Positions 3,425 to 54,184 of a DNA stretch of 64,000 nt are shown here, piece after piece. Location of the stretch: assembly GCA_031458695.1 (NCBI GenBank), contig JAVKJW010000005.1:20390-84389 (forward strand), in the 5' to 3' direction. The translations under genes were made by a program, and so were the position numbers. The notes under the pieces were generated by a model, which was not told where the DNA came from, did not search any database, and worked only from the letters and a program-made list of their open reading frames with translations. The DNA comes from Candidatus Thermofontivivens primus. GTDB taxonomy: Bacteria; Sysuimicrobiota; Sysuimicrobiia; Sysuimicrobiales; Thermofontiviventaceae. How positions within the stretch are numbered: position 1 is the first letter of the stretch; each line of letters starts with the position of its first letter.

Positions 3425-4254
3425 TGCTTCGCCTCGCCTTCCTCGGGATCATCCAGGGTTTGACCGAGTTCCTTCCTGTGAGCTCTTCCGCCCATCTCGT
3501 GTTCGCCGAGGCGATCCTAGGGATCCCGCGCCCTGGTGTCTTTCTGGAGGCGATCCTCCACCTCGGGACCCTTGTGGCGTTGGTTGTGGCTTTCCGGGAG
3601 GATCTCGTTGCAATCGCCAGAGGCTTCCTCCTGAGTCTCCTCCGGCCAAGGGAGTGGGTCAATGGAAACCCGCACAGACGGGGGATCCCGTGGGAAGGCC
3701 GGTTAGCCTGGCTCATCCTCGTCGGTTCGGTCCCGACAGGTCTCATGGGTCTTCTGTTTGAACAGGTGTTTGAGCAGATCTTTGCTTCCATCACCCTTGT
3801 GGCGATGTTCTTGTTGGTCACCGGGGCAATCCTCCTCGTGAGCGAACGGCGGTCAGCAAGCCGTCCTCTCCAGGAAGCACGTGTTCTGGACGCCCTCACC
3901 ATAGGGGTCGCTCAAGGGCTTGCCATTGCCCCGGGGATCTCCCGGTCGGGGATCACAATCGCTGCCGGGCTGTGGCGAGGAATGGACCGTGAGGCATCTG
4001 CTCGCTTTTCCTTCCTCCTAGCCATCCCCGCTATCCTGGGTGCCAGCCTCTACAAGGCCAAAGAGATGGCCCTTGCTCAAGCCATGGGAATCACCCCCTT
4101 CCAACTTCTCGTTGCTTTTGGGACATCTGTGGTTACCGGGTACCTCGCAATCCGGTGGATGCTGGAAATCGTCCGGCGCGCACGCCTTTTCTGGTTTGCC
4201 TACTACTGCTTGGGGCTCGGTCTCTTTGTCTTGATCTTCTCGCTGCTCCGGTAA
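3421..4254 (+). CDS. uppP: Undecaprenyl-diphosphatase (BacA/UppP).
   Basis: 277 aa polytopic membrane protein, start [26 protein letters not shown], the conserved UppP motif. Confidence 0.9.
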   Translation: MMLRLAFLGIIQGLTEFLPVSSSAHLVFAEAILGIPRPGVFLEAILHLGTLVALVVAFREDLVAIARGFLLSLLRPREWVNGNPHRRGIPWEGRLAWLILVGSVPTGLMGLLFEQVFEQIFASITLVAMFLLVTGAILLVSERRSASRPLQEARVLDALTIGVAQGLAIAPGISRSGITIAAGLWRGMDREASARFSFLLAIPAILGASLYKAKEMALAQAMGITPFQLLVAFGTSVVTGYLAIRWMLEIVRRARLFWFAYYCLGLGLFVLIFSLLR

Positions 4255-38516: not shown

Positions 38517-38741
38517 GGATCCCACCGACCTCTTTTGGTAAGATTTCGCTGGGCTGCGTAGCGTTGCTCCCTTCTGGGAAGATTTCCGCACTTGCGCTTG
38601 CACATCTCTCTACTGGCCAAGCGGAGGATTTCGGAAGGAAACCACGAATTCTCATCCCAAGGCACCCACGGGAGAGGGCCTGAGCTCATTGCAGGAAGGG
38701 AGGCGGGAGGTCCGAGATCGTTGACGGAACGCGTCACTCCT

Positions 38742-41507
38742 ATGCTCGAGCAGTACCGCCGCTTGAAGTCGCGGCACCCAGACGCTCTTCTTTTATTCCG
38801 CCTGGGTGATTTCTACGAGCTCTTTGAGGAAGATGCCCGCATCGCCGCGCGTGAACTCCAGCTCGTGCTCACGTCACGGTCGTTCAGCAAGGATGTGCGG
38901 CTCCCCATGTGCGGCGTCCCCCACCACTCTGTAACCTCCTACATCGCCCGCCTGATCGAACGAGGATACAAAGTAGCAGTCGTCGAGCAGTTGGAGGATC
39001 CCAGGAAGGCGAGAGGGCTCGTGAAACGGGATATCGTCCGGGTGATTACCCCCGGGACGGTGGTGGAGGAAGAGCTGCTCAAGGGATACCGGGAGAATTT
39101 CCTCGTAGCCATCGCCCACAGGAAGCAAGGATATGGGCTCTCCTTCGTGGATCTTTCCACGGGCGAGTTCGCCACCTGCCAGATCACCGGGCCGGGGGCC
39201 TGGGATCTCCTGATCGAAGAACTCCACCGCTTGCGACCGAGCGAATACATTCTCCCCGAGGGCCTCAGCCGCGATGAACGAGTCCGGCAAACGCTCCTTG
39301 AGATCGGCCCTGCGCGTATCTCCCCCCTTGACGAGAAAGCGTTCGATCCCGAGATTGCGCGCGCCCGCCTCCTGGAACACTTTGGGGTGCTCTCCCTGGA
39401 AGCTTTTGGGTGTGCAGAGCTTCCGTTGGCCATCGCCGCGAGCGGAGCGATCCTCCAATACCTGAAAGAGAATCAACCCTCTGCCTTCCTGGATCCTCGC
39501 ATCCAAGGGCAATCCCTCATGCACCTCCAACGCCTCGTCACGTACTCCCCTGAAGGATACATGCTCCTGGATGGGATCACTCGGCGCAACCTAGAGCTGA
39601 CGGAGAGCCTGCGCGATGGAACCACCCAGGGAAGCCTCCTTGATGTGCTGGATCATACCGTCACTCCCATGGGCAGGCGTCTCCTGCGAAGGTGGATCAA
39701 TCAACCCCTTCTCGATCTCTCTCAGATCCACGAGCGCCTGGACGCGGTTGGGGAGCTCGTGGAGGACAACCTGTTCCGTGGGGACCTGGGTGCCGCCCTT
39801 GAGGGGATGTCCGATGTGGAACGACTGACAGGCCGCATTGGGTTTGGGACTGCCAACGCCAGGGATCTCGTCGCCCTCAAGCGATCCCTCTTGCGCCTTC
39901 CCAGAATCAAGGAGGTGCTCCAGGGGGCGCGCACTGGACGGTTGGTCTTCCTACGAGAGAACCTGGATGACCTCCAGGATGTCTGCCGAACCATCGAGGA
40001 GGCCATTGTAGAGGATCCTCCCATCCAGCTCAAGGAAGGGGGGTTGATCAAGCCAGGATACAGCGCCGACCTGGATCACCTCCGGGAGGTGGCTGCGCGG
40101 GGGAAAGGCTGGCTGGCGGAATTGGAGGCAGCCGAGCGGGCCCGTACCGGGATCAAGGGGCTACGGATCCGGTATAATGAGGTCTTCGGCTTCTTCCTCG
40201 AGGTGCCCAGGAGCCAGAGCCACCTTGTCCCTCCGGAGTACGAGCGTCGGGCAACGATTACGCACGCCGAACGCTTCATCACTCCTGCGCTGCGCGCCAA
40301 AGAGGGAGAGATCTTGGGGGCGGAGGAACGGATCAGGGAGCTCGAGTACGAGCTCTTCGTGGAAGTTCGCACTAGGGTGGCGAGGGAGGTCGCACGCCTC
40401 CAGGAAACGGCAAGGATCTTGGCTGAGCTTGACGTGCTTGCCTCTCTGGCAGAGGCCGCAGCGCGATATGGGTATGTGAAGCCAATCGTCGATGAGGGCG
40501 ATGAGATCGAGATCCGGGAGGGACGCCACCCCGTGGTGGAGCGCTATCTCCCAGAAGGGAAGCGGTTCGTCCCGAACGATACCATGCTCAACCTCACCCA
40601 TCACCGCCTGATCCTCCTCACCGGGCCCAACATGTCAGGCAAATCGGTGTACATCCGGCAGGTCGCCTTGATCGTATTGATGGCCCAGATGGGGAGCTTT
40701 GTCCCAGCTTCCCACGCCCGGATCGGGCTTGTGGACCGCATCTTCAGCCGAGTGGGGGCGACGGACGACATCTCGCAAGGGAGGAGCACTTTCCTTGTGG
40801 AGATGAGCGAGACGAGTTATATCCTACACCACGCAACTACCCGGAGTCTTGTCATTCTTGATGAAGTAGGGAGGGGTACAAGCACCTACGATGGGATCAG
40901 CCTCGCCTGGGCGGTGGCGGAGTACTTGCACAACCACATCGGTGCGAAAACGCTCTTTGCCACGCACTTCCACGAGCTGACTCGCCTCGCTGGCAAGACA
41001 GGGGAGGAGGGGAGGTCCGGGCAACTTGGCAAGAGGGTCGGCAGAAGGTTCGTTCCCATGCCGCACCCTCAACTCCCAGGAGCGAAGAACTACACCATGG
41101 CTGTGAAGGAGCAGGGAAGCGAGATCCTCTTCCTGTACCGGGTGATCCCAGGGACCACGGATCGGAGCTACGGGATCCATGTGGCTCAGCTTGCCGGCCT
41201 TCCTGCTCCAGTGATCTCCAGGGCTCAGGAGATCCTCCAGATACTGGAACGGGCGAACGGCGCGGTTCCGCTCAGAGAGGGAGAAGGGGAAGTGATCCCA
41301 TTCCCGCGGGTCGACGAGGCGCGCGGGAAGGTCTTGGATACCCTCGCCAGCGTGGACATTGCATCGACGACCCCTCTTGAGGCGTTGAACCTCTTGTATC
41401 ATTTGCAGCAACAGGTTCGTGAGGCCAGGGTCCAGGGGATGGAGCACCTCAGGAGGGGACCTCGCCAAGATCTCCCGAGAGATTTTGGTGAGGTGGCACC
41501 GCGATGA
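38742..41507 (+). CDS. mutS: DNA mismatch repair protein MutS.
   Basis: Start at MLEQYRRLKSRHPDALLLFRLGDFYELF (the track ORF begins upstream). Walker A GPNMSGKS. Roughly 60-aa insertion near the C-terminus. Confidence 0.9.
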   Translation: MLEQYRRLKSRHPDALLLFRLGDFYELFEEDARIAARELQLVLTSRSFSKDVRLPMCGVPHHSVTSYIARLIERGYKVAVVEQLEDPRKARGLVKRDIVRVITPGTVVEEELLKGYRENFLVAIAHRKQGYGLSFVDLSTGEFATCQITGPGAWDLLIEELHRLRPSEYILPEGLSRDERVRQTLLEIGPARISPLDEKAFDPEIARARLLEHFGVLSLEAFGCAELPLAIAASGAILQYLKENQPSAFLDPRIQGQSLMHLQRLVTYSPEGYMLLDGITRRNLELTESLRDGTTQGSLLDVLDHTVTPMGRRLLRRWINQPLLDLSQIHERLDAVGELVEDNLFRGDLGAALEGMSDVERLTGRIGFGTANARDLVALKRSLLRLPRIKEVLQGARTGRLVFLRENLDDLQDVCRTIEEAIVEDPPIQLKEGGLIKPGYSADLDHLREVAARGKGWLAELEAAERARTGIKGLRIRYNEVFGFFLEVPRSQSHLVPPEYERRATITHAERFITPALRAKEGEILGAEERIRELEYELFVEVRTRVAREVARLQETARILAELDVLASLAEAAARYGYVKPIVDEGDEIEIREGRHPVVERYLPEGKRFVPNDTMLNLTHHRLILLTGPNMSGKSVYIRQVALIVLMAQMGSFVPASHARIGLVDRIFSRVGATDDISQGRSTFLVEMSETSYILHHATTRSLVILDEVGRGTSTYDGISLAWAVAEYLHNHIGAKTLFATHFHELTRLAGKTGEEGRSGQLGKRVGRRFVPMPHPQLPGAKNYTMAVKEQGSEILFLYRVIPGTTDRSYGIHVAQLAGLPAPVISRAQEILQILERANGAVPLREGEGEVIPFPRVDEARGKVLDTLASVDIASTTPLEALNLLYHLQQQVREARVQGMEHLRRGPRQDLPRDFGEVAPR

Positions 41508-43123
41508 CCATCCGCATCCTGGACCGTTCCGTGGTCGAGCGCATCGCCGCGGGAGAGGTTATCGAACGTCCAGCCTCTGTGGTCAAAGAACTGATTGAGA
41601 ACGCCCTTGACGCCGGCAGCACGGCGATCCACGTAGAGATCCTCGACGGCGGCCTCTCCTATATCCGGGTCAGCGACAACGGGTGTGGGATGACTGCAGA
41701 GGACGCGGTGTTGGCCTTAGAGCGCTTCGCCACGAGCAAGATCTCTTCAAGCGAGGACCTAGATAAGATCCGTACGCTAGGGTTCCGAGGAGAGGCCCTA
41801 CCGAGCATCGCATCAGTGAGCCGCCTGGAGCTTGTGACACGGGCCTCCCCTGCACCAGAGGGGAGGCGCCTGATCGCGGAGGGAGGGGCGGTTACCGTTG
41901 AGGCGGCCGCTAGTCCTGTGGGGACCAGCGTCACAGTCCGCGACCTCTTCTACAATACCCCTGCACGCCGGAAGTTCCTCAAATCTCCTCTGAGGGAGGC
42001 CGAGCTGGTGCAGAGGACGGTCCTCCGGTACGCCCTCGCCTACCCGCAAGTTGCCTTTCGCCTCACCATTGACAGAAGAGAGAGCCTAGTACTCCCCCAA
42101 GGGAAGCTCCTGGATCGGATCGCTGCCCTGTGGGGGAGGGAGGTTGCTTCGGAGATGCTGGAGGTCCAGTGGGAGGGTGTTGATCTCCACGTGTGGGGGT
42201 ATGTCAGCCGGCCTACCATCGCCAAGGCAAGCCGGGAATTCCAACACCTCTTTGTCAACGGCCGGCCAGTACGCCCAGGATTTCTCTCTGTGGCCATAGA
42301 ACGTCCCTACCATGGCCTCCTCCCGCCGGGGAGGCACCCTCTCGCGGTCCTCTCCCTGGTGATCCACCCATCCCTCGTCGATGTGAACGTCCACCCCCAA
42401 AAGGCGGAGATTCGGTTCCTCCAGGAGAGGTCAGTCTACTGGGCGATTTCGCAGGCGATCGGAAAGGCGCTCTCTCGCATTTCCCCTGAAGAGATTCCCC
42501 AGCAGGCTTGGCCATTCCCCGAAAGTAGGGCTGAGGAAGTTCGAGAAACCCCCACCCCCTACATTGGAGACCTCCGTGTCTTGGGCCAGCTACACCACAC
42601 CTATATCCTTGCGATAGATCCTCAAGGGCTCTGGATTGTGGACCAACATGCCGCCCACGAGCAGGTTCTCTTTGAGCGGATCCTCAAAAACCCTAGCCCT
42701 GTGATCCTTTCCCCGCCAGTGAGCCTCCAGGTCCCCCCTCGGGAAGGGGAACTCCTGCGTACCTTCCAGGAAGTTCTTGAGGCGATTGGCGTCGAGATGG
42801 AACCATTTGGGGGCCAGACCATTCTCATCCGCTCCGTCCCTGAGGTTGCTAAAACCGTAGACCTCACCGAGCTCCTAGTCGAAATCGGCGGAGTTCTTGA
42901 TCGCTACAGAGGTAGTCTCTCTGAACACCTCCGAGAGCAGTTGGCAATGAAGGTTGCATGCATCGCTGCCTATAAGAGCGGGGATCCTCTTACTCGTGAG
43001 CAGATGCAATCCCTTCTGGACGAGCTCCAGACCGCCTGGTCCCCTGCAACCTGCCCTCACGGCCGGCCAACCTTCGTGATCCTCTCCGTGGAGGAATTGG
43101 AGCGGAGGTTTCTGCGGAGATGA
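41504..43123 (+). CDS. mutL: DNA mismatch repair protein MutL.
   Basis: GHKL ATPase N-terminus (IAAGEVIERPASVVKELIENALDAG). C-terminal dimerisation/endonuclease domain with DQHAAHE motif. Confidence 0.9.
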   Translation: MTIRILDRSVVERIAAGEVIERPASVVKELIENALDAGSTAIHVEILDGGLSYIRVSDNGCGMTAEDAVLALERFATSKISSSEDLDKIRTLGFRGEALPSIASVSRLELVTRASPAPEGRRLIAEGGAVTVEAAASPVGTSVTVRDLFYNTPARRKFLKSPLREAELVQRTVLRYALAYPQVAFRLTIDRRESLVLPQGKLLDRIAALWGREVASEMLEVQWEGVDLHVWGYVSRPTIAKASREFQHLFVNGRPVRPGFLSVAIERPYHGLLPPGRHPLAVLSLVIHPSLVDVNVHPQKAEIRFLQERSVYWAISQAIGKALSRISPEEIPQQAWPFPESRAEEVRETPTPYIGDLRVLGQLHHTYILAIDPQGLWIVDQHAAHEQVLFERILKNPSPVILSPPVSLQVPPREGELLRTFQEVLEAIGVEMEPFGGQTILIRSVPEVAKTVDLTELLVEIGGVLDRYRGSLSEHLREQLAMKVACIAAYKSGDPLTREQMQSLLDELQTAWSPATCPHGRPTFVILSVEELERRFLRR

Positions 43124-44073
43124 TCCCACATGGTCCTTTGATCGTCATCTGTGGCCCCACGGCGGTCGGGAAGACCGCTGCGAGTATCGAGGTTGCCAAG
43201 GCAATTGGGGGAGAGATCATCTGTGCAGATTCGCGGACTGTCTACCGATACATGGATATTGGGACCGCCAAGCCGACGGAGGATCAGCGGCGGCAGGTTC
43301 CCCATCACCTCCTGGACGTAGCTGACCCCTCCGAAGTCTTCACCGTCGTCCAGTTCGTGGCAATGGCCGAGGAGGCCATCCGGAGCATTCATGAAAAGGG
43401 GAAGGTTCCCCTTCTGGTAGGGGGTACGGGCCTCTACATCCGTGCGGTAGTGGACGGGCTGACGATCCCAATGGTTCCCCCGAACTGGGAGCTTCGGTCC
43501 CGCCTGGAGGAGGAGGCAAGGAAGTTCGGACCAGAGGCCTTGCACCGCCGGCTCGCCGAGACTGACCCCGTCGCGGCACAACGCATTCACCCTGGAAACG
43601 TCCGGAGGGTCATCCGAGCGCTGGAGGTGTACGCGGCCACAGGTCGTCCCATCTCTTCCATGCAGTCCCGCAAAGGATCTCCCTATACTGTCACCATGAT
43701 CGGCCTTACCCTGGACCGGCCAAAGCTCTATGCACGCATCGCAGACAGAGTCTATACACAAATCCACCAGGGCCTCGTGGAGGAAGTCAGAAGCCTCCTT
43801 GCGCGGGGATATTCCCGAGAGCTCCCTGCTATGCAAGGGCTCGGATACAAGGAGATTGCGGGGTACCTGCAGGGAGAGTACTCGCTGGAGGAGGCGATCC
43901 GGCGGGTGATTGTCAACACCCGCCGCTACGCCAAACGGCAGTTTACCTGGTTTCTCCGGGATCCCCGGATCCAGTGGATCGACGTGGACGATCTTTCTCC
44001 CCCTGAAATAGCAAGGAGGATCCTCGGCTTGCTGGGGGAGATTGGAGCTCGGGGGAAGAGTGTGGTACCATGA
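43120..44073 (+). CDS. miaA: tRNA dimethylallyltransferase MiaA.
   Basis: ICGPTAVGKT P-loop, 317 aa. ATGA overlap with mutL. No hfq downstream. Confidence 0.9.
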   Translation: MIPHGPLIVICGPTAVGKTAASIEVAKAIGGEIICADSRTVYRYMDIGTAKPTEDQRRQVPHHLLDVADPSEVFTVVQFVAMAEEAIRSIHEKGKVPLLVGGTGLYIRAVVDGLTIPMVPPNWELRSRLEEEARKFGPEALHRRLAETDPVAAQRIHPGNVRRVIRALEVYAATGRPISSMQSRKGSPYTVTMIGLTLDRPKLYARIADRVYTQIHQGLVEEVRSLLARGYSRELPAMQGLGYKEIAGYLQGEYSLEEAIRRVIVNTRRYAKRQFTWFLRDPRIQWIDVDDLSPPEIARRILGLLGEIGARGKSVVP

Positions 44074-44177
44074 GGCAAATAGATGGAACAAGGAGGCGGA
44101 TTCGCTCGCCCAGCGAAGGAGTCTTGGCGTAATCTTTTGGTAAGACCTCTTAAGGGTACTGGAGGGGAGGAAAGGGT

Positions 44178-45350
44178 ATGGAGTCCAAGAGGTTACAGCG
44201 AGTCCCAAGTTACCTGTTCAGCGATCTTGACCGGAAACAGGAGGCTCTGCAAGCCCAGGGAATGGATGTGATCAACCTGGGGGTAGGGGACCCTGATCTC
44301 CCCCCGCCTCCTCATGTCGTAGAAGCGCTGCGGCAGGCACTCAACGAACCGGCAAACCACCGGTATCCCCCTTACGCGGGAACGAAGGAGTTCCGGGAGG
44401 CGGTTGCCCAGTGGTACCAGCGAAGGTTTGGGGTGAGCCTGGATCCAGACCGCGAGGTACTCGCACTGATCGGTTCCAAAGAAGGACTGGCTCATCTCCC
44501 GTGGGCCCTCCTCGACCCTGGCGACGTTGCGCTTGTACCCGACCCAGGTTACCCGGTGTATAAGACAGCTGTCTTGCTGGCAGATGGGGAACCCTTCCCA
44601 GTTCCATTAGATCCTCAAAGTGGCTTCCTTCCTGATTTGGAGACTATCCCTCCAGAGATTGCACGGAGGGCGAAGGTCTTCTTTCTGAATTATCCAAACA
44701 ATCCTACAGCAGGTGTAGCAACCAAGGAGTTCTTCAGGGACCTTGTGAAGTTTGCACAAGATTATGGTATTATCCTTGTGCAGGATAACTCCTATTCTGA
44801 GATCGCCTATGATGGATATAGACCCCCGAGCCTCCTAGAGGTCGAGGGGGCCAAAGAGGTAGGGATTGAATTCCACTCGCTCTCTAAGACATACTGTATC
44901 ACGGGGTGGCGCATTGGGTTTGTCGTGGGCAATCCCAAGGTGGTAGGAGCGCTTGGGAAGCTCAAGACGAACCTAGACTCGGGAGTGTTCCGGGCAATCC
45001 AACATGCGGGAACGGTGGCCCTCAATGGGCCTCAGGACGAGGTCCTCAAGCGGTTGGAGGTCTTCCAACGGCGCAGGGATCTTGTGGTCAACCGCCTCCG
45101 GGAACTTGGGTGGGAGGTGCCGCTTCCCAAAGCAACGTTTTATATCTGGCTCCGAACCCCCGATGGTTCAACTGCGAGAACCTTCGCAGAGACCGTGTTG
45201 ATGCGGACCGGGGTGGTGGTCACTCCTGGAAGCGGGTATGGTGAGAGGGGAGAAGGATATGTCCGCCTCTCGATCACTGTACCCGATGCCCGCCTTGAGG
45301 AAGCCCTCAACCGGATCACCGAAGCATTCAAGGGCTTCGGGCAAGGTTGA
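44178..45350 (+). CDS. Class-I PLP aminotransferase, probably LL-diaminopimelate aminotransferase (DapL type).
   Basis: 390 aa. N-terminus ...YLFSDLDRKQEALQAQGMDVINLGVGDPDLPPP..., typical of LL-DAP aminotransferase / AspB-like enzymes. Confidence 0.75.
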   Translation: MESKRLQRVPSYLFSDLDRKQEALQAQGMDVINLGVGDPDLPPPPHVVEALRQALNEPANHRYPPYAGTKEFREAVAQWYQRRFGVSLDPDREVLALIGSKEGLAHLPWALLDPGDVALVPDPGYPVYKTAVLLADGEPFPVPLDPQSGFLPDLETIPPEIARRAKVFFLNYPNNPTAGVATKEFFRDLVKFAQDYGIILVQDNSYSEIAYDGYRPPSLLEVEGAKEVGIEFHSLSKTYCITGWRIGFVVGNPKVVGALGKLKTNLDSGVFRAIQHAGTVALNGPQDEVLKRLEVFQRRRDLVVNRLRELGWEVPLPKATFYIWLRTPDGSTARTFAETVLMRTGVVVTPGSGYGERGEGYVRLSITVPDARLEEALNRITEAFKGFGQG

Positions 45351-45407
45351 TAGGTTCCTTCTGGGGTCACTGAAGATCGGCAGAGGCAGGGATTCACTAA
45401 AGGGGAG

Positions 45408-47222
45408 ATGGGAAGCCTGGAAAGGATCCATGGCCTGACGAAAGGGATCAAGGAAGAGCACCGGAAAGCTTTGGAAGCCCTCCGGGGGTTCACCATTCCT
45501 TCGAACGTCATTTGCACCCCAGAGCTTGCTGGAGAGATCGCCTACCTAAGTCACGTCATTGGGAGAGATGTGGGTGTCCTCGTGGACCGTCACGGATCGG
45601 TCCATGAGGTCGTACTTGGCCACCGGTGGGGGTCGTGGTTAGAGGAGATCCCGCCACGGAGTGGCTCCCAACCACTTGCTGGGCTTCGCCTCATCGAGGC
45701 CCATCCCGTGAGGGACGGGAGGCCCACGGATGCGGAGCGAAGGCTCCTGTTTGACGCGGGCCTCGACCTCCTCGTCACTCTCGGTTCTGCCGATGGCTTG
45801 CCTACGGAGGCGTGGATCGCTACTTTGGGGGCATGCGATGGTCGTCTCACCATCCATGAAGAGGGCCCCTACACCATGGACACCCTTGCGCACCTTGACC
45901 TCGCCTATCGCGTCCGCTCAGCCGAAAAAGCCCTCCGTTCCACTCTGTTGAGGCCTATCAGGGCTCCGACAAAGGAACGGGCAATTCTTGTGGCCCTTCA
46001 AAGGGGTGGAGGCGCGGATTGGGAGATAGAGGACTCCCTGGAGGAGCTCACCCGTCTTGCGGAGACCGCAGGAGCCCAGGTGGTGGGCGTGATCACCCAA
46101 CAACGCAAGAGCCCTGATCCAGCCACGTTCATCGGTCGCGGGAAGGTCCAGGACGTTCTGCGTATGAGCGATGAAAAGGAAGCGAACCTGGTGATCTTTG
46201 ACGATGAGCTTACCCCAGCACAACAGCGGAACCTGGAGCAAGCACTTGGGCTCAAGGTCATCGACCGTACCGCGCTCGTCCTGGACATTTTTGCTCGGAG
46301 AGCGCGGACACGAGAGGGCCGTTTGCAAGTAGAACTCGCCCAGTTGCAGTATATGCTCCCACGCCTCGCAGGGAGGGGCGTCTGGCTTTCCCGCCTCGGA
46401 GGCGGCATTGGAACACGAGGCCCTGGCGAGACGAAACTGGAAGTGGACCGGAGGCATATTCGAAGCCGCATCACCGACTTGAAGCGAGAGATCCAGGAGA
46501 TCAGCCGGCACCGTCGGCTCCACCGGGAGGCCAGGAAGGAGGCGGTACTTCCGGTAGTGGCCCTTGTGGGGTACACCAACGCCGGCAAGTCGACCCTCCT
46601 AAATGCTCTCACCAACGCGAATGCTTTCGTGGAGGACAAGCTCTTTGCCACACTGGATCCTCTCGTCCGGAAGGCGATCCTTCCCGATGGGCGAGCGGTC
46701 CTGTTCGTGGACACTGTCGGGTTCATCCGGAAGCTCCCCACCCAGCTCGTGGCAGCCTTCCGGGCAACTCTGGAGGAGGTTGTAGAATCCACCTTGCTTG
46801 TCCATGTCGTGGATGCCACCCACCCGCGCAGGCTGGAGCAGGTTCAGGTGGTCAATGCGATTCTAGAGGAGCTAGGAGCTTTAGAAAAGCCCGTCGTATA
46901 TGCCTTGAACAAGGTGGATGCACTTTCTCCACAGGAAGTGCAAAGGATCCAGATGGAGATTCCCGAGGGCGTACCAGTCTCGGCGTTGTATCATAGAGGC
47001 CTTGCAGACCTCCTTGCGCGTATCTCCGAGCGCCTCCCTGGTCGCCCTGAACGCCTTCACCTGCGGATTCCTTATACAAAAGCAAGGCTTCTAGCGGAAA
47101 TTCGCGAGCGTGGGAAGGTCCTCGCAGAGGAGTTTAAAGAGGAGTGGATAGAGATAGAGGCAGAGGTACCCCCCGCGGCAGCGAACCAGCTCAGAGCTTT
47201 CTTGCACGCCGAAACGCAGTAG
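45408..47222 (+). CDS. hflX: GTPase HflX with a roughly 170-aa N-terminal extension.
   Basis: HflX N-domain, G-domain (GYTNAGKSTLLNAL, DTVGF, NKVD) and C-domain. The extra N-terminal region has no recognisable motif. Confidence 0.85.
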   Translation: MGSLERIHGLTKGIKEEHRKALEALRGFTIPSNVICTPELAGEIAYLSHVIGRDVGVLVDRHGSVHEVVLGHRWGSWLEEIPPRSGSQPLAGLRLIEAHPVRDGRPTDAERRLLFDAGLDLLVTLGSADGLPTEAWIATLGACDGRLTIHEEGPYTMDTLAHLDLAYRVRSAEKALRSTLLRPIRAPTKERAILVALQRGGGADWEIEDSLEELTRLAETAGAQVVGVITQQRKSPDPATFIGRGKVQDVLRMSDEKEANLVIFDDELTPAQQRNLEQALGLKVIDRTALVLDIFARRARTREGRLQVELAQLQYMLPRLAGRGVWLSRLGGGIGTRGPGETKLEVDRRHIRSRITDLKREIQEISRHRRLHREARKEAVLPVVALVGYTNAGKSTLLNALTNANAFVEDKLFATLDPLVRKAILPDGRAVLFVDTVGFIRKLPTQLVAAFRATLEEVVESTLLVHVVDATHPRRLEQVQVVNAILEELGALEKPVVYALNKVDALSPQEVQRIQMEIPEGVPVSALYHRGLADLLARISERLPGRPERLHLRIPYTKARLLAEIRERGKVLAEEFKEEWIEIEAEVPPAAANQLRAFLHAETQ

Positions 47223-47230
47223 GGATTTAT

Positions 47231-47845
47231 CTAATGCAAACGCCGGATGAGTGCAATAGCTTTCCCCAGGATGACCACGTCCCGGACGAGAATGGGCTCC
47301 ATGGCGGGGTTTTCTGGTTGCAACCGGATGTACTCGCGCTCCTTGTAGAATCGCTTGACTGTCGCTTCGTCCTCCAGAAGGGCAACGACGATATCTCCGT
47401 TCTCGGCAGTCTGTTGCCTGCGTACCAGAAGAAGATCACCGTCGAAGATCCCGGCACCGACCATGCTGTCGCCACGAACGCGGAGTAGGAAAACTTCCTC
47501 GCCACGCACGAAATCCCAAGGAAGAGGGAAGACATCTTCGATATTCTCCACGGCGAGAATAGGCTGCCCTGCCGTGACCCGGCCGATAATCGGAACGGGC
47601 ACAACCCGCTTCATGGGAAGGCTTGTCTCATCACGGAGGATCTCGATGGCTCGGGGTTTTGTGGGATCCCGGTGGATATATCCTTTCTTTTCCAAGGCGG
47701 CAAGGTGGCTGTGGACCGTTGAGCTGCTGGTCAGTCCAAGGGCGCGCCCGATCTCCCGCACTGAGGGTGGATATCCTCGGGAACGTGTGTACTCCTGGAT
47801 ATACGAGAGGATTTCCCGCTGCCGTTTTGTCAGGGCTTTGCTCAT
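47231..47845 (-). CDS. lexA: SOS repressor LexA.
   Basis: Start at [19 protein letters not shown]... (wHTH). C-terminal S24 peptidase with Ser-Lys dyad (GDSM ... VKRF). Confidence 0.9.
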
Positions 47846-47904
47846 AGGAAGCCCTCCTTCTGAAGTCTTCACCGGGCAGATTATACCACAACTTCCATCT
47901 TTTG

Positions 47905-47920
47905 GCAAACATTTGTTCGC
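47905..47920. promoter_or_regulatory. Cheo-like LexA box in the lexA / DUF72 divergent promoter region.
   Basis: gcAAACATTTGTTCgc, same class as the recA box. A second palindrome, TGTTTAttatgTAAACA, lies about 20 bp away at about 47940-47957. Confidence 0.55.
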
Positions 47921-48055
47921 AAAGAACTTATTTCGCATAATGTTTATTATGTAAACAACCTTCTTTGAGAAGGGCGTTGAGGTATCGCTCCCCGCTGAGG
48001 AGTAAAATAAAGGCCGGAGCCACACCTTCTCCTCGCGAATGGTAGGGTCGACAGG

Positions 48056-48853
48056 ATGGCAAGGGCATGGATCGGTACTTCAGGATATAACTATGCCCAC
48101 TGGGAGGGAGTCTTCTATCCTCAAGGGTTGCCAGCACGTAAGTGGCTTTCTTACTATGCTCAGAGGTTTTCCATCGTCGAGTTGAACGTCACGTTTTACC
48201 GACTTCCACAGAAGAAAACCTTTGAGACGTGGGCGAAGACAGCGCCTGAAGGGTTTGTCTTTGTTCTCAAAGGGAGCCGTTTCATTACGCACATTAAGCG
48301 GTTAAAGGAAACGGAAAGCTCTCTCTATATCCTGTTCGACCAGTCCTCACCTCTTGCGGACAGGATCGCCGCCGTCCTCTGGCAGCTCCCTCCACGCTTC
48401 CGGGCGGACCTGGAACGCCTGGAAAGCTTCCTGCAGGCTCTGCGCGCTTCTCCCTTGGCCCAGCGCTACCGCCATGCTTTCGAGTTCCGGGATATGACGT
48501 GGTTCCGCGATGACATCTACGAGATCTTGAAAAAGCACAATGTCGCCCTCGTCCTTGCAGATTGGCCCTTCCAGGTGCTCGGGCCAGGGATGAAAGCCCA
48601 GCACATTGACAGGGAGGCGATCCAGGTCCCCCATACTGCCAATTTCGTCTATCTCCGCCGACACGGGCCCGGGGCGCTGTTCAGCAGCAACTACCCGGAG
48701 AGGATGATCAAATCTGACGCAGAGGCAATCCAGAAGTGGCTCGCGGAGGGCCGGGAGGTCTATTGTTTCTACAACAACGATGTCGCTGGCTATGCCGTCA
48801 AGAATGCGTTAAAGCTGAAGGAGCTGGTAGAAGGAAAGGGATCAGCGTCCTGA
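48056..48853 (+). CDS. DUF72 (UPF0759, YecE-like) family protein.
   Basis: [22 protein letters not shown]...[15 protein letters not shown]... is canonical DUF72. Divergent from lexA. Confidence 0.8.
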
Positions 48854-49741
48854 GGATGAAATGACAATAGCATCTAACCGAGTAGCGGCTTCACGGGCAG
48901 AAGGGTGGATAACGAACCCGAAGAGGACCACGATGAACTTTCCAGGAAGCTGCGGAGCTAATTGGGTAGCCTTGCGGACAGCTGCCTCCACGTCACGGCC
49001 ATAGATTCGACTCTTTACCTCACCCACCACGGCTACTACTTCACCATCCTGGGTTCCCTCCCCGTAGAAATCCACCTCCACCTCTTGGCCATCTACGGTG
49101 AAGAAATGACGATCCAACACAGGAACTTGAATCCCATAATGCTGGGCGAGGTAGGCGGGAGTCACCTCGCGAGCAAGGTCTTCGAGGGTAAAGCCTATGG
49201 TTTCGCTGAGGCGGAAAACTTGCTGTGAAAGGGTACGGACGGTCTCTTCTGTCCTCGCTTGTGCCTCAGCGAGCCTGGCAACGGCCTCTTCAAGGCGCCC
49301 TACACGTTCTTCAGTCCTCGCTTGTGCCTCAGCGAGCCTGGCAACGGCCTCTTCAAGGCGCCCTACACGTTCTTCAGTCCTCGCTTGTGCCTCAGCGAGC
49401 TTGGCAATGGCCTCTTCAAGGCGCCCTACACGTTCTTCAGTCCTCGCTTGTGCCTCAGCGAGCTTGGCAATGGCCTCTTCAAGGCGCCCTACACGCTCTT
49501 CAGTCCTTGCTTGTGCCTCAGCGAGCTTGGCAACGGCCTCTTCAAGGCGCCCTACACGCTCTTCAGTCCTTGCTTGTGCCTCAGCGAGTTCTCCCAGCCG
49601 AGTCTCTGTCCTAACTTGCGCCTCAGCGAGCCGATCGACGCGCTCGGCAAGCACTTGAAGGGTACCCTGCGTCTGTGCCTGAGCTTCGGCCAAGCGGGCA
49701 AGAGCAGATTCTAACCTGTCCACGCGAGGATCGCGCAACAT
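48842..49741 (-). CDS. Coiled-coil protein with 21-aa tandem repeats and a C-terminal PD-(D/E)XK-like (DUF3782-like) domain.
   Basis: About six copies of AEAQARTEERVGRLEEA(V/I)A(K/R)L. C-terminus ...EVEVDFYGEGTQDGEVVAVVGEVKSRIYGRD... has the D...E-x-K nuclease-fold signature. Sigma-A-like promoter (TTGACG, 17 bp, TATGCT) upstream. Confidence 0.6.
   Translation of the reverse strand: MLRDPRVDRLESALARLAEAQAQTQGTLQVLAERVDRLAEAQVRTETRLGELAEAQARTEERVGRLEEAVAKLAEAQARTEERVGRLEEAIAKLAEAQARTEERVGRLEEAIAKLAEAQARTEERVGRLEEAVARLAEAQARTEERVGRLEEAVARLAEAQARTEETVRTLSQQVFRLSETIGFTLEDLAREVTPAYLAQHYGIQVPVLDRHFFTVDGQEVEVDFYGEGTQDGEVVAVVGEVKSRIYGRDVEAAVRKATQLAPQLPGKFIVVLFGFVIHPSAREAATRLDAIVISSSGR
49245..49620. 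repeat. About six near-identical 63-bp tandem repeats (coding, in the coiled-coil gene).
   Basis: Unit tcttcagtcctcgcttgtgcctcagcgagc(c/t)tggcaa(c/t)ggcctcttcaaggcgccctacacg(t/c), repeated head-to-tail. Confidence 0.85.
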
Positions 49742-49890
49742 ACGCCCTCATTCTCCGTTTGAAGCATATCGGCTTATTCCCTCTACGTCAAGGGTCGCAC
49801 GACGCAGCTCGCGCTCGTCCGGTGAGCATGGATCCATTTCGGCTACCGGGGCGAAGCGGTAGCAGTGGGTAGAGTGAGGGATGAGGGGGG

Positions 49891-51177
49891 CTAACGAAGG
49901 TGACGGAAGACCTCTCGTGCAGCTTCTACTGTACGCTCGATCTCTTTCTCGCTGTGGGAAAGGGAGACAAACCAAGCCTCAAACTGGGAGGGTGGGATGT
50001 ATACCCCTCTCTCCAGCATCCCCCAGAAGAAACGGCTGAACTGCTGCTTGTCGGAACGGTTCGCGTCATCGAAATTCTCAACAGGACCTTCTGTGAAGAA
50101 CACGGTGAGCATAGATCCAACTCTGTTCACGGTCACAGGAATCCCTGCTTCTCTTGCTGCTTCCCTTAATCCTTCCGCCAACCGCACCCCAAGCTTCTCC
50201 AGCCGGCCGTATGGGTCCGTGGTCCGGAGGATCCGCAACGTAGTCGCCCCGCATGCCATAGCCACGGGGTTCCCGGAGAGCGTTCCTGCTTGGTACACCG
50301 GACCGAGAGGGGCAACGAGCTTCATGATCTCTCGCGGTCCTCCAAAAGCGCCCACAGGGAATCCGCCACCAATAATTTTCCCCAGGCAAGTGAGGTCTGG
50401 AAGAACCCCGTACAAAGCTTGTGCGCCTCCATAGCTCACGCGAAATCCTGTAATCACTTCATCAAAGATGAGCAACGAACCCGAACCCTTGGTCAGCCTG
50501 CGTAACCCTTCAAGGAACCCAGGCTTTGGGGGAACTACTCCCATGTTCCCGGCGATGGGCTCGACGATGACAGCCGCGATGCGTTCGCCATATAGTTGGA
50601 AAGCCCGCTCCACAGCTTCGAGGTCGTTATAGGGAAGGGTCAAGGTCATCTCCGCAATTGCCTGGGGGATTCCGGGCCGCGTTGTGATTCCGAGGGTGGC
50701 GATCCCGGAGCCACCTTGGACGATGAGCCCATCGGAATGCCCGTGGTAGCCCCCAGCGAATTTCACCACTAGATCTCTGTTGGTATACGCTCGGGCCAGC
50801 CGGACCGCGCTCATGACCGCTTCTGTCCCCGAGTTGACCATGCGCACCATTTCCACCGAGGGTACTCCTTCCACGATCAGTTGGGCAAGATCTACCTCCC
50901 ATGGGGAAGGCGCTCCGAAGCTGCTCCCCAGCCGGAGAACCTGGGAGGCAACCTCCACCACCTCTGGGTGGGCGTGCCCAAGGATCAACGGTCCCCAGGA
51001 GCACACGTAGTCGATGAATCTGTTGCCATCCACGTCTATAAGATAGGCCCCTTCCCCCTTCGCAATGAAAAAGGGGGTCCCTCCGACAGCTTGGAATGCG
51101 CGTACAGGGCTGTTTACGCCTCCTGGGATCAAGTTGCAAGCCTGGGCATAGAGCTGTTGTGACCGATTCTGTATCAA
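49891..51177 (-). CDS. hemL: Glutamate-1-semialdehyde 2,1-aminomutase.
   Basis: 428 aa, class-III aminotransferase, highly conserved GSA-AM N-terminus. Confidence 0.9.
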   Translation of the reverse strand: MIQNRSQQLYAQACNLIPGGVNSPVRAFQAVGGTPFFIAKGEGAYLIDVDGNRFIDYVCSWGPLILGHAHPEVVEVASQVLRLGSSFGAPSPWEVDLAQLIVEGVPSVEMVRMVNSGTEAVMSAVRLARAYTNRDLVVKFAGGYHGHSDGLIVQGGSGIATLGITTRPGIPQAIAEMTLTLPYNDLEAVERAFQLYGERIAAVIVEPIAGNMGVVPPKPGFLEGLRRLTKGSGSLLIFDEVITGFRVSYGGAQALYGVLPDLTCLGKIIGGGFPVGAFGGPREIMKLVAPLGPVYQAGTLSGNPVAMACGATTLRILRTTDPYGRLEKLGVRLAEGLREAAREAGIPVTVNRVGSMLTVFFTEGPVENFDDANRSDKQQFSRFFWGMLERGVYIPPSQFEAWFVSLSHSEKEIERTVEAAREVFRHLR

Positions 51178-52385
51178 CTCTCCACACCTCCGCCGGCCAG
51201 GATTCTGGCGACATCTTCCTGGAAGGGGAAGCTCCCCGGCTCGTAGGCACAGAATGGATCCTCCGCAAGAGGATCAGCGCTGACTCCGAAGGCCCTGGAC
51301 CTGGATCCTCCGCAGACTGTGCGGAACTCGCACCTCCCGCACCTGCCCCGCAGCTGATCTGGGTCCCGCAGCGATCGAAAGAGGGGAGAGCTCCTGTATA
51401 ACTCTCCGAGCGGGGTCAGACGGACGTTTCCAACTCCAAGAGGCAGAAATCCGCTCGGGAAGACCTCTCCGAGGTGGTTGATGAACACGAACCCCTTGCC
51501 GGCGTTAACGTCAAGGGGAGGACGCCGCATCTTTCCTGGGATCTCCCCCGCCCCTGGGAGGTGCACGCGCTCCCGCAGCTTGCGGTACGTTGGCCCAAGG
51601 GGCAGGATCTCCTCGGGAGGGATCCCCCGCTGTTCCAGGATGGTTCGCTGGACCACCACGCGTTTGTAGTGATGGCCCTCTGTGGTCTTCACCGGGAGAA
51701 CCTTGGAGACATCGTAAAGAAAGTGCATGACATCTTCAAACTCCTGTGGGGTGAGCTGAGGAAGACCCTTTCCCCTCCCTGTGGGAACTAAGAAGAAGAT
51801 GCTCCAGGTCATCACCCCCCTACTCCGGACCAGCTCGAAGATGTTGGGGAGGTCATCGAGGTTGTGAGGGGTAACGGTGGTGTTGATCTGCACCTTCAGC
51901 CCACAGGATCTCGCCGCATCCCAGCCCCGCAGGGTCCAATGATAGACCCCATCCACCCTGCGGAAACCATCGTGAATTGCGGGAGTAGATCCGTCGACGC
52001 TGAAGGAAATGGCCACGGCTCCTGCCTCCCTTAGCCTGCGGATGTTCTCCGGCGTCAGCGTTGGAGTTCCCGAGGGTGATACGGAGACAGGAAGCCCCTT
52101 CTCCGCTCCGTACCGGACGAGGTCAAACAGATCCTCCCGCTTGAAGGGATCTCCCCCTGTCAGGATGAACAGGGGCGGAGGAGGGATGAACTCAGCGACC
52201 TGATCGATGAGCCTGTATCCCTCCTCTGTGGTCAGCTCCCCTTCCTCTCGTTCTGGGATTGCAGAGGCTCGGCAGTGGACACAGGCGAGATCACATGCCC
52301 GCGTAACCTCCCAGATCACCAGAAACGGGCGCTGATTCAGATCGTAGGTAGGATGTCGAATTGTCTTTACCCGTGAGGTGTTCAT
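51174..52385 (-). CDS. Radical SAM / SPASM-domain protein, AhbD/NirJ-like (heme-branch maturase).
   Basis: CDLACVHC cluster motif, C-terminal Cys-rich SPASM (CGRCEFRTVCGG...C). Embedded between hemL and hemB, overlapping hemL by 4 nt. Confidence 0.75.
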   Translation of the reverse strand: MNTSRVKTIRHPTYDLNQRPFLVIWEVTRACDLACVHCRASAIPEREEGELTTEEGYRLIDQVAEFIPPPPLFILTGGDPFKREDLFDLVRYGAEKGLPVSVSPSGTPTLTPENIRRLREAGAVAISFSVDGSTPAIHDGFRRVDGVYHWTLRGWDAARSCGLKVQINTTVTPHNLDDLPNIFELVRSRGVMTWSIFFLVPTGRGKGLPQLTPQEFEDVMHFLYDVSKVLPVKTTEGHHYKRVVVQRTILEQRGIPPEEILPLGPTYRKLRERVHLPGAGEIPGKMRRPPLDVNAGKGFVFINHLGEVFPSGFLPLGVGNVRLTPLGELYRSSPLFRSLRDPDQLRGRCGRCEFRTVCGGSRSRAFGVSADPLAEDPFCAYEPGSFPFQEDVARILAGGGVES

Positions 52386-52388
52386 CCT

Positions 52389-53372
52389 TCAACTCCTTTC
52401 CCTGAGCCAATGTGCCGCATCCTTGGCGAAGTACGTGAGGATCACGTCTGCACCTGCACGCTTGATCGCCGTAAGGATCTCCACGACTGTGGCTCGCTCA
52501 TCCAACCACCCTTGTTGGGCCGCTGCCTTGACCATGGCGTACTCCCCACTCACGTTGTAGGCAGCGGTTGGCATGCGAAACAGCTCTTTGATCTTCGCTA
52601 GGATATCCAAATTGGGAAGGGCAGGCTTGACCATGACCATATCTGCCCCTTCCTCGATGTCCAGGGAGACTTCCCGGATCGCTTCTTCGCGGTTTGCGAT
52701 GTCCATCTGGTAAGAGCGCCTGTCGCCAAACTTCGGTGCGGATTCGGCTGCCTCCCGGAAGGGTCCGTACAGGGAGGAAGCGTATTTGGCTGCGTAGGCC
52801 AGGATGGCGATGTCTTGGTATCCTGCCCCATCCAGGGCCTCGCGGATCGCCCGGACTTGGCCATCCATCATCCCCGAAGGGGCGATGATGTCTGCTCCGG
52901 CTGCAGCTTGGCTGATGGCGATTTCGCGATATCGGTCAAGCGTCCGATCATTGTCCACAGTCCCGTTGCGGACGATCCCACAGTGGCCGTGCGAAGTATA
53001 CTCGCACATGCACAGGTCAGTGATCAGGAGAAGCCTCTCACCGAACTCCTCCCGGATCCGCCGGAGCGCCCGTTGGATGATCCCGTTGGGGTCACTCGCG
53101 CCACTCCCTTCAGGGTCCTTCCGAGCGGGGATGCCAAAGAGGATCACAGCCGGGACACCGACCTCCACGAGTTCCTCGCACTCCCGCACCAAGCTGTCCA
53201 GGGTGTGTTGGTACTGACCGGGCATCGAGGCAATGGGTTCCGGTGCGGCGATCCCCTCCTTCACGAACAGGGGAGCGACGAGGTCGAACACCTCGAGCCT
53301 CGTCTCCTGGACCATCCTCCGGAGAAGAGGGTTGCGGCGCAACCTCCGCATCCTGACGACAGGAAAGCTCAT
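52389..53372 (-). CDS. hemB: Porphobilinogen synthase.
   Basis: Start at MSFPVVRMRRLRR.... Active-site Lys region and metal-binding Cys/Asp residues conserved. Confidence 0.9.
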   Translation of the reverse strand: MSFPVVRMRRLRRNPLLRRMVQETRLEVFDLVAPLFVKEGIAAPEPIASMPGQYQHTLDSLVRECEELVEVGVPAVILFGIPARKDPEGSGASDPNGIIQRALRRIREEFGERLLLITDLCMCEYTSHGHCGIVRNGTVDNDRTLDRYREIAISQAAAGADIIAPSGMMDGQVRAIREALDGAGYQDIAILAYAAKYASSLYGPFREAAESAPKFGDRRSYQMDIANREEAIREVSLDIEEGADMVMVKPALPNLDILAKIKELFRMPTAAYNVSGEYAMVKAAAQQGWLDERATVVEILTAIKRAGADVILTYFAKDAAHWLRERS

Positions 53373-54184
53373 CTTCCTCCCTCCCCTTTCTTCCAACCCA
53401 GGTTCCCAACCAGGGCCCGTACGAGCCCCTCGCTCGTATACTCTTGGGCTACAGCGTCCACCCGGATCCCCAGGTTCCTTGCCGCCTCTGCAGTCACAGG
53501 GCCAATGCACGCCACAAAGACACGGGAGAGGGCGTCGATGCCGCCCTCACCCACCATCACTAGGAAGTTCCGAACGGTGGAGGGGCTGGTGAATGTGATG
53601 GCGTTCACCACTCCCTTGTTCAGCAACTCCCGGATTGCCTCCCCGTTCTCCATATCAGGGACGGTTCGATACGCAGGGACGACGTCCACCTTGGCGCCGA
53701 GCTTCTCTAGCTCCCTCGGGAGGAGATCCCTCGCCTCCTCCGCCCTTGGCAAGAGGATCCGTTTCCCGCGGAGATCGTAGTTGGAGAAAGCCTCCACGAG
53801 CCCTTCCGCTCGATACTCTTTTGGGGATAGAGTGACCCGGATTCCCTGCTCCTCCAGGGCTTCCCGGGTTGCAGGGCCGATGGCCGCAATCTCCATTGCG
53901 AGAAGCTCCCTCGGATCCCTGTGGAGGGCTTTCATCCGTTCCAAGACAGCCCTAACTCCGTTCGCGCTGGTAAACACAACCCATTGATAGGAGGAAAGGT
54001 TCGCTAGCGCGTGGTCCAGCCGCTCGTAGCTCTGGGGTGGGATGATCCGGATGGTGGGGTAGAGCAAGCATTCCGCCCCCAGCTCCTCAAGGGAATGGAC
54101 CAGGTCCTTCGCCTGCTCCCGAGGCCGTGTCACGAGGATCCTCCAGCCGGAAAGAGGCTTGTGCAAGGTCTCACCCCCGCCCAT
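53369..54184 (-). CDS. hemD: Uroporphyrinogen-III synthase.
   Basis: 271 aa HemD fold, between hemC and hemB. Confidence 0.8.
   Translation of the reverse strand: MGGGETLHKPLSGWRILVTRPREQAKDLVHSLEELGAECLLYPTIRIIPPQSYERLDHALANLSSYQWVVFTSANGVRAVLERMKALHRDPRELLAMEIAAIGPATREALEEQGIRVTLSPKEYRAEGLVEAFSNYDLRGKRILLPRAEEARDLLPRELEKLGAKVDVVPAYRTVPDMENGEAIRELLNKGVVNAITFTSPSTVRNFLVMVGEGGIDALSRVFVACIGPVTAEAARNLGIRVDAVAQEYTSEGLVRALVGNLGWKKGEGGR

Follow-up and report, generated by a model that had tools for sequence, protein, structure and literature searches.

A coiled-coil stalk built by a 63-bp tandem array in a PD-(D/E)XK-fold protein of Candidatus Thermofontivivens primus

Runs of nearly identical DNA inside a gene raise the questions of whether they are real, what they encode and how they came about. 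Such a run is present in a stretch of 64,000 nucleotides (nt), here called the window, from the hot-spring bacterium Candidatus Thermofontivivens primus (positions 20,390 to 84,389 of contig JAVKJW010000005.1, assembly GCA_031458695.1). On the minus strand of the window, a complete gene for a protein of 299 amino acids (aa) combines a 63-bp tandem array with a nuclease-like C-terminal domain. In the original prediction, which was made from the sequence alone, about six nearly identical 63-bp units were said to encode a heptad-like repeat of 21 aa, fused to a domain with a D...E-V-K nuclease-fold signature. As argued below, the product is probably a homo-oligomeric PD-(D/E)XK endonuclease tethered by a coiled coil, the stalk of which would expand and contract in whole-heptad steps by slippage and conversion.

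Reading of the units in the coding frame bore out the 21-aa heptad-like repeat: each unit consists of three heptads and is translated as LAEAQARTEERVGRLEEAV/IAK/R. With Tandem Repeats Finder, one strong array was obtained (period 63, 97 % matches, no indels, score 625); the 63-bp tandem repeat of the original prediction stands, while its count of about six comes down to 5.5 copies. Strictly speaking, that number is a minimum, since a pair of neighbouring units with exactly the same sequence would be merged into one. Neighbours among the units W1 to W4 differ stepwise by 1–2 nt, namely by two synonymous changes, one V/I exchange and one K/R exchange. The start of the gene is consistent with the N-termini of the homologs, which read M-x-L-x-x-R-[IV]-D-R-L-E, and no paralog of the gene was found within the window. 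Frameshift phase variation was considered and rejected: the 63 bp of a unit are divisible by both 3 and 21, and a change in copy number therefore alters the length of the protein and not its frame. Plus-strand open reading frames (ORFs) of 153, 129 and 151 aa that lie antisense to the array (49197..49714, including 49197..49658) were rejected as artefacts of the repeat.

Could the array itself, or its copy number, be an artefact of assembly, caused by repeat collapse, over-extension or a chimeric join of strains? Close relatives of the bacterium have been deposited in GenBank as metagenome-assembled genomes (MAGs) named 'Armatimonadota bacterium', and related MAGs with members of the protein family are classified as Candidatus Sysuimicrobiota. 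Two such contigs, each from a sister strain, terminate within the array. Contig JAVKHS010000077.1 (GCA_031432455.1), which is 98.5 % identical to the window over 10.6 kb, enters the array from the nuclease (3') side and ends after three mutually identical units or part-units; contig JAUQQG010000087.1 (GCA_030550015.1), 99.9 % identical over 4.7 kb, enters it from the hemL (5') side and ends at gene nucleotide 291. The exact 299-aa product and its 90 % cluster are, moreover, absent among ~15 billion catalogued proteins, and a metagenome scan with an ortholog-specific 30-mer gave zero matches. The window array nevertheless looks sound. Every full unit in it is distinct, which makes it resolvable with ordinary reads, and the variants shift stepwise along the array. 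The longest exact internal repeat measures 87 nt and all k-mers of at least 99 nt are unique in the array region, so that 150-nt reads or graphs with k = 127 find a single path. The array is in frame throughout with its heptad register intact, the sister strains independently have at least 2–3 units, and comparable or longer arrays are present at many family loci (for example L029, L018 and L010; Table 1). Taking both sides together, an artefact is very improbable. The contigs of the sister strains break because their assembled units are identical to each other: the 63-bp repeat does break public short-read MAG assemblies of this lineage, and truncated 'partial' proteins in the databases are the visible symptom of contigs that end in the repeat.

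The comparison of strains also bears on how the array came about. At two synonymous sites, all full units of the window carry ACT/CGC, and all assembled units of the 98.5 % identical strain carry ACA/CGG. Units of the two strains differ on average at 3.75 of 63 nt, while units of the window differ from each other at 2.2 and those of the sister strain at 0. From the divergence of the flanks only 0.94 differences per unit would be predicted, which makes the units ~4 times as divergent between the strains as the flanking DNA. These figures indicate that the units were homogenised within strains, which would amount to concerted evolution through gene conversion or unequal exchange, or else to independent re-expansion after the strains had split. 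The recent expansion or ongoing gene conversion that had been suspected from the near-identity of the units thus found support in the strain-specific synonymous states and in the excess over flank divergence.

Young stalk arrays are a habit of the whole family and not an oddity of the gene in the window. Near-identical tandem repeats occur in 62 of 282 family proteins, and the only periods seen are 7, 14, 21, 28 and 42 aa. The window protein has the top repeat score, and comparable cases are P0175 (6.5 × 14 aa), P0205, P0236 and P0148. At the DNA level, the arrays in the stalks have periods of 21, 42, 63, 84, 126, 147 or 168 bp, all of which are multiples of 21, and many of them show 92–100 % identity. 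Such arrays sit in the stalk region of most of the loci that were fetched (Table 1).

The array encodes part of a predicted helical stalk. In the full-length AlphaFold2 (AF2) model, which has a predicted local distance difference test score (pLDDT) of 91.9, residues 5–179 form a single uninterrupted α-helix of ~26 nm, followed by a hinge and the nuclease domain (Table 1). Heptad phases were counted towards the N-terminus from the conserved Gly that marks the beginning of that domain. Hydrophobic residues are found in only two of the phases, where their fractions are 0.66 and 0.67 among close homologs and 0.63 and 0.61 across the wide family, against at most 0.20 in the other phases. This two-phase pattern persists more than 70 residues away from the nuclease domain. 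The length of the stalk falls into the same class modulo 7 in 92 of 120 close homologs. The heptad register is thus fixed right up to the nuclease domain. Stalk lengths in the family alignment range from 15 to 211 residues in the wide family, the window protein having ~183.

The stalk is made up of AQx[RK]T[ED] modules, which are conserved as a sequence and not merely as a pattern. The window protein has seven, starting at residues 41, 55, 76, 97, 118, 139 and 160; one of them is a more diverged module directly upstream of the array. No member of its clade has more than seven, and up to eight are found in the wide family. Spacings from one module to the next are 14, 21 or 28 residues, and 466 of 468 are multiples of 7. 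It is conceivable, though we would give the idea little weight, that the AQxRTE module, which places a polar Q(a)/T(d) layer in the core every 14–21 residues, is a functional unit, serving as a binding site for ions, partners or nucleic acids or as a length 'ruler' for the reach of the nuclease head. Gain and loss of modules by slippage would then act as a contingency mechanism that adjusts valency or reach from strain to strain in thermophilic bacteria and archaea.

β-Branched residues at position a, Leu at d and Arg-Glu pairs at g/e' form the classical signature of a parallel dimer. In the stalk of the window protein, position a is occupied by V/I/Q, d by L/T, e by E/A and g by R/A. Because of the V/I at a, the Leu at d and the R(g)/E(e) pairs, the stalk would be expected to form a parallel, in-register homo-oligomer, the likeliest being a dimer.

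The C-terminal domain has a PD-(D/E)XK (restriction-endonuclease-like) fold in which the catalytic-type residues are intact. The signature of this fold, a Glu in the first helix, an Asp in strand β-2 and (D/E)-x-K in strand β-3, is found in E187, D224 and E241-V-K243. The D...E-V-K signature of the original prediction was located in the raw sequence as D224...E241-V242-K243. Judging by residue counts from the strand boundaries, D224 would lie opposite E241 and E222 opposite K243 in the predicted β-2/β-3 hairpin, which would be the canonical geometry. R245 (99/116), H279 (96/116) and P280 (106/116) are also conserved among the 116 full-length representatives on which the conservation figures in Table 1 are based. 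In fold searches, the best structural matches were NucS and EndoMS; further neighbours included N.BspD6I, HamA, Shedu, SdaI, FokI, Card1, Can2, Cap4, CdiA-CT toxins, NucC and Hjc. The domain therefore does have nuclease-fold matches, the lack of which had been named beforehand as the result that would speak against it, and its best structural relatives are active nucleases. Searches at the sequence level were far less productive. Nothing above threshold was obtained with the C-terminal 132 aa in Pfam, NCBIfam, PADLOC and PHROGs, and sequence searches of the PDB with the single domain and two profiles returned NUS1, HPRT and tropomyosin only, all of them spurious. Library matches of the full-length protein to SMC, Rad50, JetC, tape-measure and XhlA proteins were rejected as coiled-coil noise on the repeat helix.

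At two motif positions, the family departs from the canonical residues, and for that reason a rival view has been retained, in which the restriction-endonuclease fold is dead and only binds DNA or a partner, the protein being a structural or adaptor coiled coil. Motif II has Asn in place of D224 in 52 of the 116 representatives, and the motif III Lys is replaced by Arg in at least 90 % of the sequences of the closest clade. A DNA-recognition domain, a partner gene and an operon were all looked for and not found, and two members of the family alignment A3 weakly match the 'inactive REase' Pfam family NA-iREase3 (E 0.025). The window protein itself, however, keeps the canonical Lys, and its E...ExD...ExK set is complete. 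Conservation of E187, E222 and E241 exceeds 90 % in the family, which is hard to explain without metal binding, and the closest structures belong to active nucleases, as noted above. A dead fold is accordingly regarded as unlikely. As an observation in its own right, the occurrence of Asn in 45 % of the representatives at the D224 column and of Arg at K243 in the closest clade, next to three glutamates conserved above 90 %, may reflect a split into active and inactive members or an unusual active site.

In the endonuclease reading that is preferred here, the gene encodes a stand-alone protein of two parts, a heptad stalk of ~175 residues and a C-terminal nuclease domain of ~110 residues. Through oligomerisation of the stalk, at least two nuclease domains would be kept next to each other for the joint cutting of nucleic acid, which may be likened to the dimerisation-dependent relatives NucS, FokI and Hjc. 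The stalk is built from the conserved AQxRTE-containing module, and its length would shift by in-frame tandem duplication or deletion of multiples of the heptad (here 63 bp = 21 aa). Such shifts would arise by replication slippage or unequal recombination between units and would be followed by homogenisation within the lineage. As only multiples of 7 residues are gained or lost each time, neither the register of the coiled coil nor the way in which the nuclease heads are oriented would be disturbed.

Several points weigh against this reading. β-Layers are a feature of trimeric coiled coils. Since crenarchaeal relatives with such layers point to trimers, the dimer is not secure and a trimer may be possible; it was Lupas and co-workers who solved a related DUF3782 stalk (Tcar0761, 5APZ) and described crenarchaeal DUF3782 stalks with β-layers (PMC4786415). 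With Asn at the D224 column and Arg at K243 being as frequent as given above, catalysis may not be the selected function in every member, and it is for every member of the family that we infer nuclease activity, substrate and oligomeric state. Differences in copy number between strains were not seen directly, both sister contigs ending inside the array. Lastly, the 7n periodicity could be pure mutational bias rather than selection on the register, because slippage needs homology and homology recurs here every 42 or 63 bp.

The architecture as such is not new, coiled-coil-stalked PD-(D/E)XK proteins having been known in the literature since 2007. DUF1626/PDDEXK_10 (PF07788, COG5493) comprises coiled-coil proteins of this fold (Knizewski et al. 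2007, PMC1913061), the function of which was listed as unknown and the distribution of which is patchy, as in horizontal gene transfer (Steczkiewicz et al. 2012, PMC3424549). DUF1626 and the window family are alike in occurring patchily in thermophilic archaea and scattered bacteria and in being routinely mis-annotated through coiled-coil similarity. They differ at the position of the motif III lysine, where DUF1626 often has Thr and the window family K or R. No match of PF07788 to the window domain was obtained in Pfam scans at E ≤ 10 and E ≤ 1, and 3 of 36 diverse family domains are matched weakly (best E 0.013).

DUF3782 (PF12644) represents coiled-coil stalks of prokaryotic PD-(D/E)XK endonucleases, the bacterial ones being without nonads and related periodicities (Hartmann et al. 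2016, eLife, PMC4786415). In DUF3782 proteins, as in the window protein, the stalk is N-terminal to the PD-(D/E)XK domain, and the strictly heptad stalk of the window family agrees with the bacterial DUF3782 stalks without nonads or β-layers. The A-T-K-x-D/E nonad (β-layer) motif is not present in the window stalk, the conserved module of which, AQxRTE, keeps to the canonical heptad frame. DUF3782 is not among the matches listed for the window protein (cut-off 24.4 bits). For the close relative P0107, the score is 16.8 bits. Matches at E < 1e-3 were obtained with 9 of 105 family representatives, the best at 4.9e-5. By the criteria of hidden Markov models, the window protein falls outside both PF07788 and PF12644, with which it shares its architecture.

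Proteins of this kind had been said in the original prediction to be mislabelled at times as 'chordopoxvirus fusion protein' (DUF3782). The underlying similarity of the coiled coils is real: the Vac_Fusion family (PF02346) gives 22.5 bits with the window protein, on residues 59–89 of the repeat helix only, and matches 9 of 105 family representatives at E < 1e-3 (best 6e-12). The label as such did not hold up, the window protein remaining below the cut-offs (24 for Vac_Fusion) and no use of 'chordopoxvirus fusion protein' as the name of a family member being found in the literature and public sources searched. A relationship to chordopoxvirus A27 was rejected; the homology is confined to the coiled coil and constitutes an annotation trap.

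With the C-terminal nuclease domain of NucS/EndoMS (PDB 2VLD, 5GKE), the window domain shares the fold at 14 % identity and with zero sequence-level match. Where NucS has an N-terminal β-barrel for dimerisation and DNA binding, the window protein has its helix of ~175 residues, and the window family shows no conserved repair context. FokI, MspJI/AspBHI, Can2/Card1, NucC and Cap4 carry recognition or sensor domains (DNA-binding, SRA-like, CARF, SAVED). Unlike these, the window protein has a coiled coil only, without sensor or partner genes.

The family to which the gene belongs is large. The C-terminal 132 aa retrieved 212 homologs at E ≤ 1e-3, the close homologs being 65–82 % identical, and an exhaustive HMMER scan of 1.84 billion cluster representatives retrieved 795 clusters (at 50 % identity) with E ≤ 1e-3, of which 373 remain with E ≤ 1e-10. 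Bacterial members come from Sysuimicrobiota/'Armatimonadota', Acidobacteriota, Bacillota, Anaerolineae, Aminicenantia and Aerophobetes, and archaeal members from Sulfolobales, Bathyarchaeia, Thermoproteota and Asgard lineages. Many of them originate from MAGs of hot springs or thermophiles, and several genomes have two copies. In their sources, these proteins are named 'hypothetical protein' or carry coiled-coil misnomers such as prefoldin, phasin, seryl-tRNA synthetase, AcrA or 'nuclease with TOPRIM domain'. Most members of the wide family bear the precomputed Pfam label PF26618 (DUF8196). The sister protein P0001, the C-terminal 132 aa of which are identical to those of the window protein, has a precomputed 'weak' match to PF26618; the local Pfam scans gave no PF26618 match. 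No description of DUF8196 was found in the literature. The window protein is a member of a large family that has already been catalogued, and it probably belongs to the sister group of the PF07788 and PF12644 families that is now labelled DUF8196.

Table 1 Features of the stalk-nuclease gene in the window, and young stalk arrays at other loci of the family
Feature	Position	Strand	Basis or identity
Complete gene, 299 aa (coiled-coil stalk and PD-(D/E)XK-like nuclease domain)	48842..49741	-	ATG start; stop codon 48842..48844; ORF list
63-bp tandem array, 5.5 copies, three-heptad 21-aa units LAEAQARTEERVGRLEEA[VI]A[KR]	49245..49588	-	Tandem Repeats Finder
Stalk, residues 5-179, canonical heptads (predicted)	49205..49729	-	Full-length AF2 model, heptad-phase analysis
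Hinge between stalk and nuclease domain, residues 180-185	49187..49204	-	pLDDT <50 at residues 176-183, full-length model
Nuclease domain, residues 186-295	48857..49186	-	Full-length model
E187, conserved Glu, first core helix (motif I)	49181..49183	-	E in 114/116 representatives
E222-V-D224, strand β-2 (motif II)	49070..49078	-	E222 = E in 106/116; D224 = D 64, N 52 of 116
E241-V-K243, end of strand β-3 (motif III, 'ExK')	49013..49021	-	E 112/116; K 98, R 12 of 116; codons read directly
Purine-rich Shine-Dalgarno-like stretch GGAGAATGAGGG	49745..49756	-	3-11 nt upstream of ATG, read from sequence
Candidate σ70-like promoter TTGACG-17-TATGCT	49763..49791	-	Consensus scan, 149-bp gap after hemL
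Stalk array of locus L005, 63 bp × 2.9			100 % identity
Stalk array of locus L021, 63 bp × 2.6			99 % identity
Stalk array of locus L006, 84 bp × 3.1			97 % identity
Stalk array of locus L029, 126 bp × 4.2			97 % identity
Stalk array of locus L019, 42 bp × 5.7			95 % identity
Stalk array of locus L018, 84 bp × 6.6			92 % identity
Stalk array of locus L010, 63 bp × 7.8			89 % identity

In the window, the stalk-nuclease gene is separated by a gap of 149 bp from the preceding hem cluster, which consists of hemB, a radical-SAM gene and hemL. The candidate promoter in this gap is one site against 0.5 expected in the consensus scan, which is weak evidence. On its other side, a DUF72 gene (48056..48853, plus strand) converges on the stalk-nuclease gene, the two overlapping at their 3' ends by 12 nt (48842..48853). 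No terminator-like site was found between them, the sole match in the scanned region (48748..48761, plus strand) lying inside the DUF72 gene. The tetrapyrrole cluster extends over 49891..53510 on the minus strand and contains hemL, the radical-SAM gene (51174..52385, the stop of which overlaps the start of hemL) and hemB/ALAD; judging by the sister contig L034, it is continued on its upstream side by genes for uroporphyrinogen-III synthase (HEM4) and porphobilinogen deaminase. By the annotation of the sister contig L001, the region ~38600..48025 contains mutS, mutL, miaA, an aminotransferase gene and hflX one after another and then lexA, which is encoded on the other strand.

This synteny of hem, DUF72, lexA and mutSL is confined to the sister strains, and three long homolog contigs have unrelated neighbours. 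No neighbour gene recurs across 31 family loci; a single recurring 'neighbour' cluster was rejected because it consisted of the repeat read in antisense. A census with Pfam of the 121 ORFs of at least 100 aa that flank the gene at 28 loci returned housekeeping and metabolic functions, with no enrichment of toxin-antitoxin (TA), defence or mobile-element genes. No relatives were found by tblastn in phage and plasmid collections, and fold matches in BFVD were rejected as evidence for a phage origin since they are generic PD-(D/E)XK folds. PHROGs and PADLOC-DB v2 both gave zero matches to the nuclease domain, the full-length matches in the latter covering only coiled-coil parts of JetC, LmuB and DruC. 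The gene is a solitary, patchily distributed accessory gene. Its solitary position, its patchy occurrence and the two copies that genomes often have fit an accessory nuclease that spreads horizontally better than they fit a core repair enzyme.

A role in repair would nonetheless have some appeal. In structure, the domain matches NucS and EndoMS best, lexA is found at a distance of 0.8 kb and mutS-mutL within ~10 kb, so that a NucS/EndoMS-like DNA-repair endonuclease, possibly linked to the SOS response, might be envisaged. The protein, however, is without the N-terminal DNA-binding domain of NucS and gave zero NucS/DUF91 matches in Pfam. The proximity to lexA and mutSL is seen in two sister strains only, other family loci lying elsewhere, and the two copies in several genomes would be unusual for a core repair gene. 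We therefore consider a repair function quite doubtful.

Somewhat more can be said for an effector of a defence or TA-type conflict system, for instance one linked to MNT/HEPN genes, in which the variable stalk would be under diversifying pressure from interactions with phages or inhibitors. A nucleotidyltransferase/HEPN pair occurs within ~1.5 kb in two of three annotated long contigs, one of which also has a PIN toxin, and DUF1626 restriction endonucleases occur in operons with MNT and HEPN genes according to Anantharaman et al. (PMC3710099). The patchy, cross-phylum distribution, the duplicate copies and the presence of the Can2, Card1, HamA, Shedu, NucC and Cap4 nuclease domains among the fold neighbours are in line with this. 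The ORF census shows, however, that the MNT/HEPN vicinity is not general. Neighbours do not recur, PADLOC and PHROGs are blank for the nuclease domain, relatives in phages and plasmids are missing, and the gene in the window sits between the hem operon and DUF72/lexA. A defence function is thus judged improbable, and the accessory endonuclease set out above remains the preferred reading.

Three further observations were made at individual loci. In L002 (4086..5832) and L003 (7904..8603), TA-like pairs, namely PIN with a small partner and a Pol-beta nucleotidyltransferase with HepT/HEPN, lie within ~1.5 kb of family members. L002 also contains an unrelated 33-bp × 4.2 tandem repeat with 83 % matches (3860..3997, equal to 1542..1679 of L008); it is situated within a 122-aa ORF without annotation that precedes a family member in Candidatus Fervidifonticultor sextus. 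In L005 (CAYZKQ010000023.1), a run of N at ~2150..2250 lies between the 63-bp × 2.9 array and an 84-bp × 2.7 array; this may be a scaffold gap caused by the repeats, or masking.

In conclusion, the main use of the finding is as a well-documented example and as a caveat for annotation and assembly, not as a new kind of system. It provides a confident structure-based annotation for the gene and for a family of ~800 clusters that is otherwise 'hypothetical' or mislabelled through coiled-coil similarity. The family offers a clear case from nature in which recent tandem duplication changes the length of a coiled coil by whole heptads, and concerted evolution becomes visible between strains with 98.5 % identity. 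If the length of the stalk or the number of its modules is functional, the family would offer a tractable system for studying how the length of a coiled coil is tuned.

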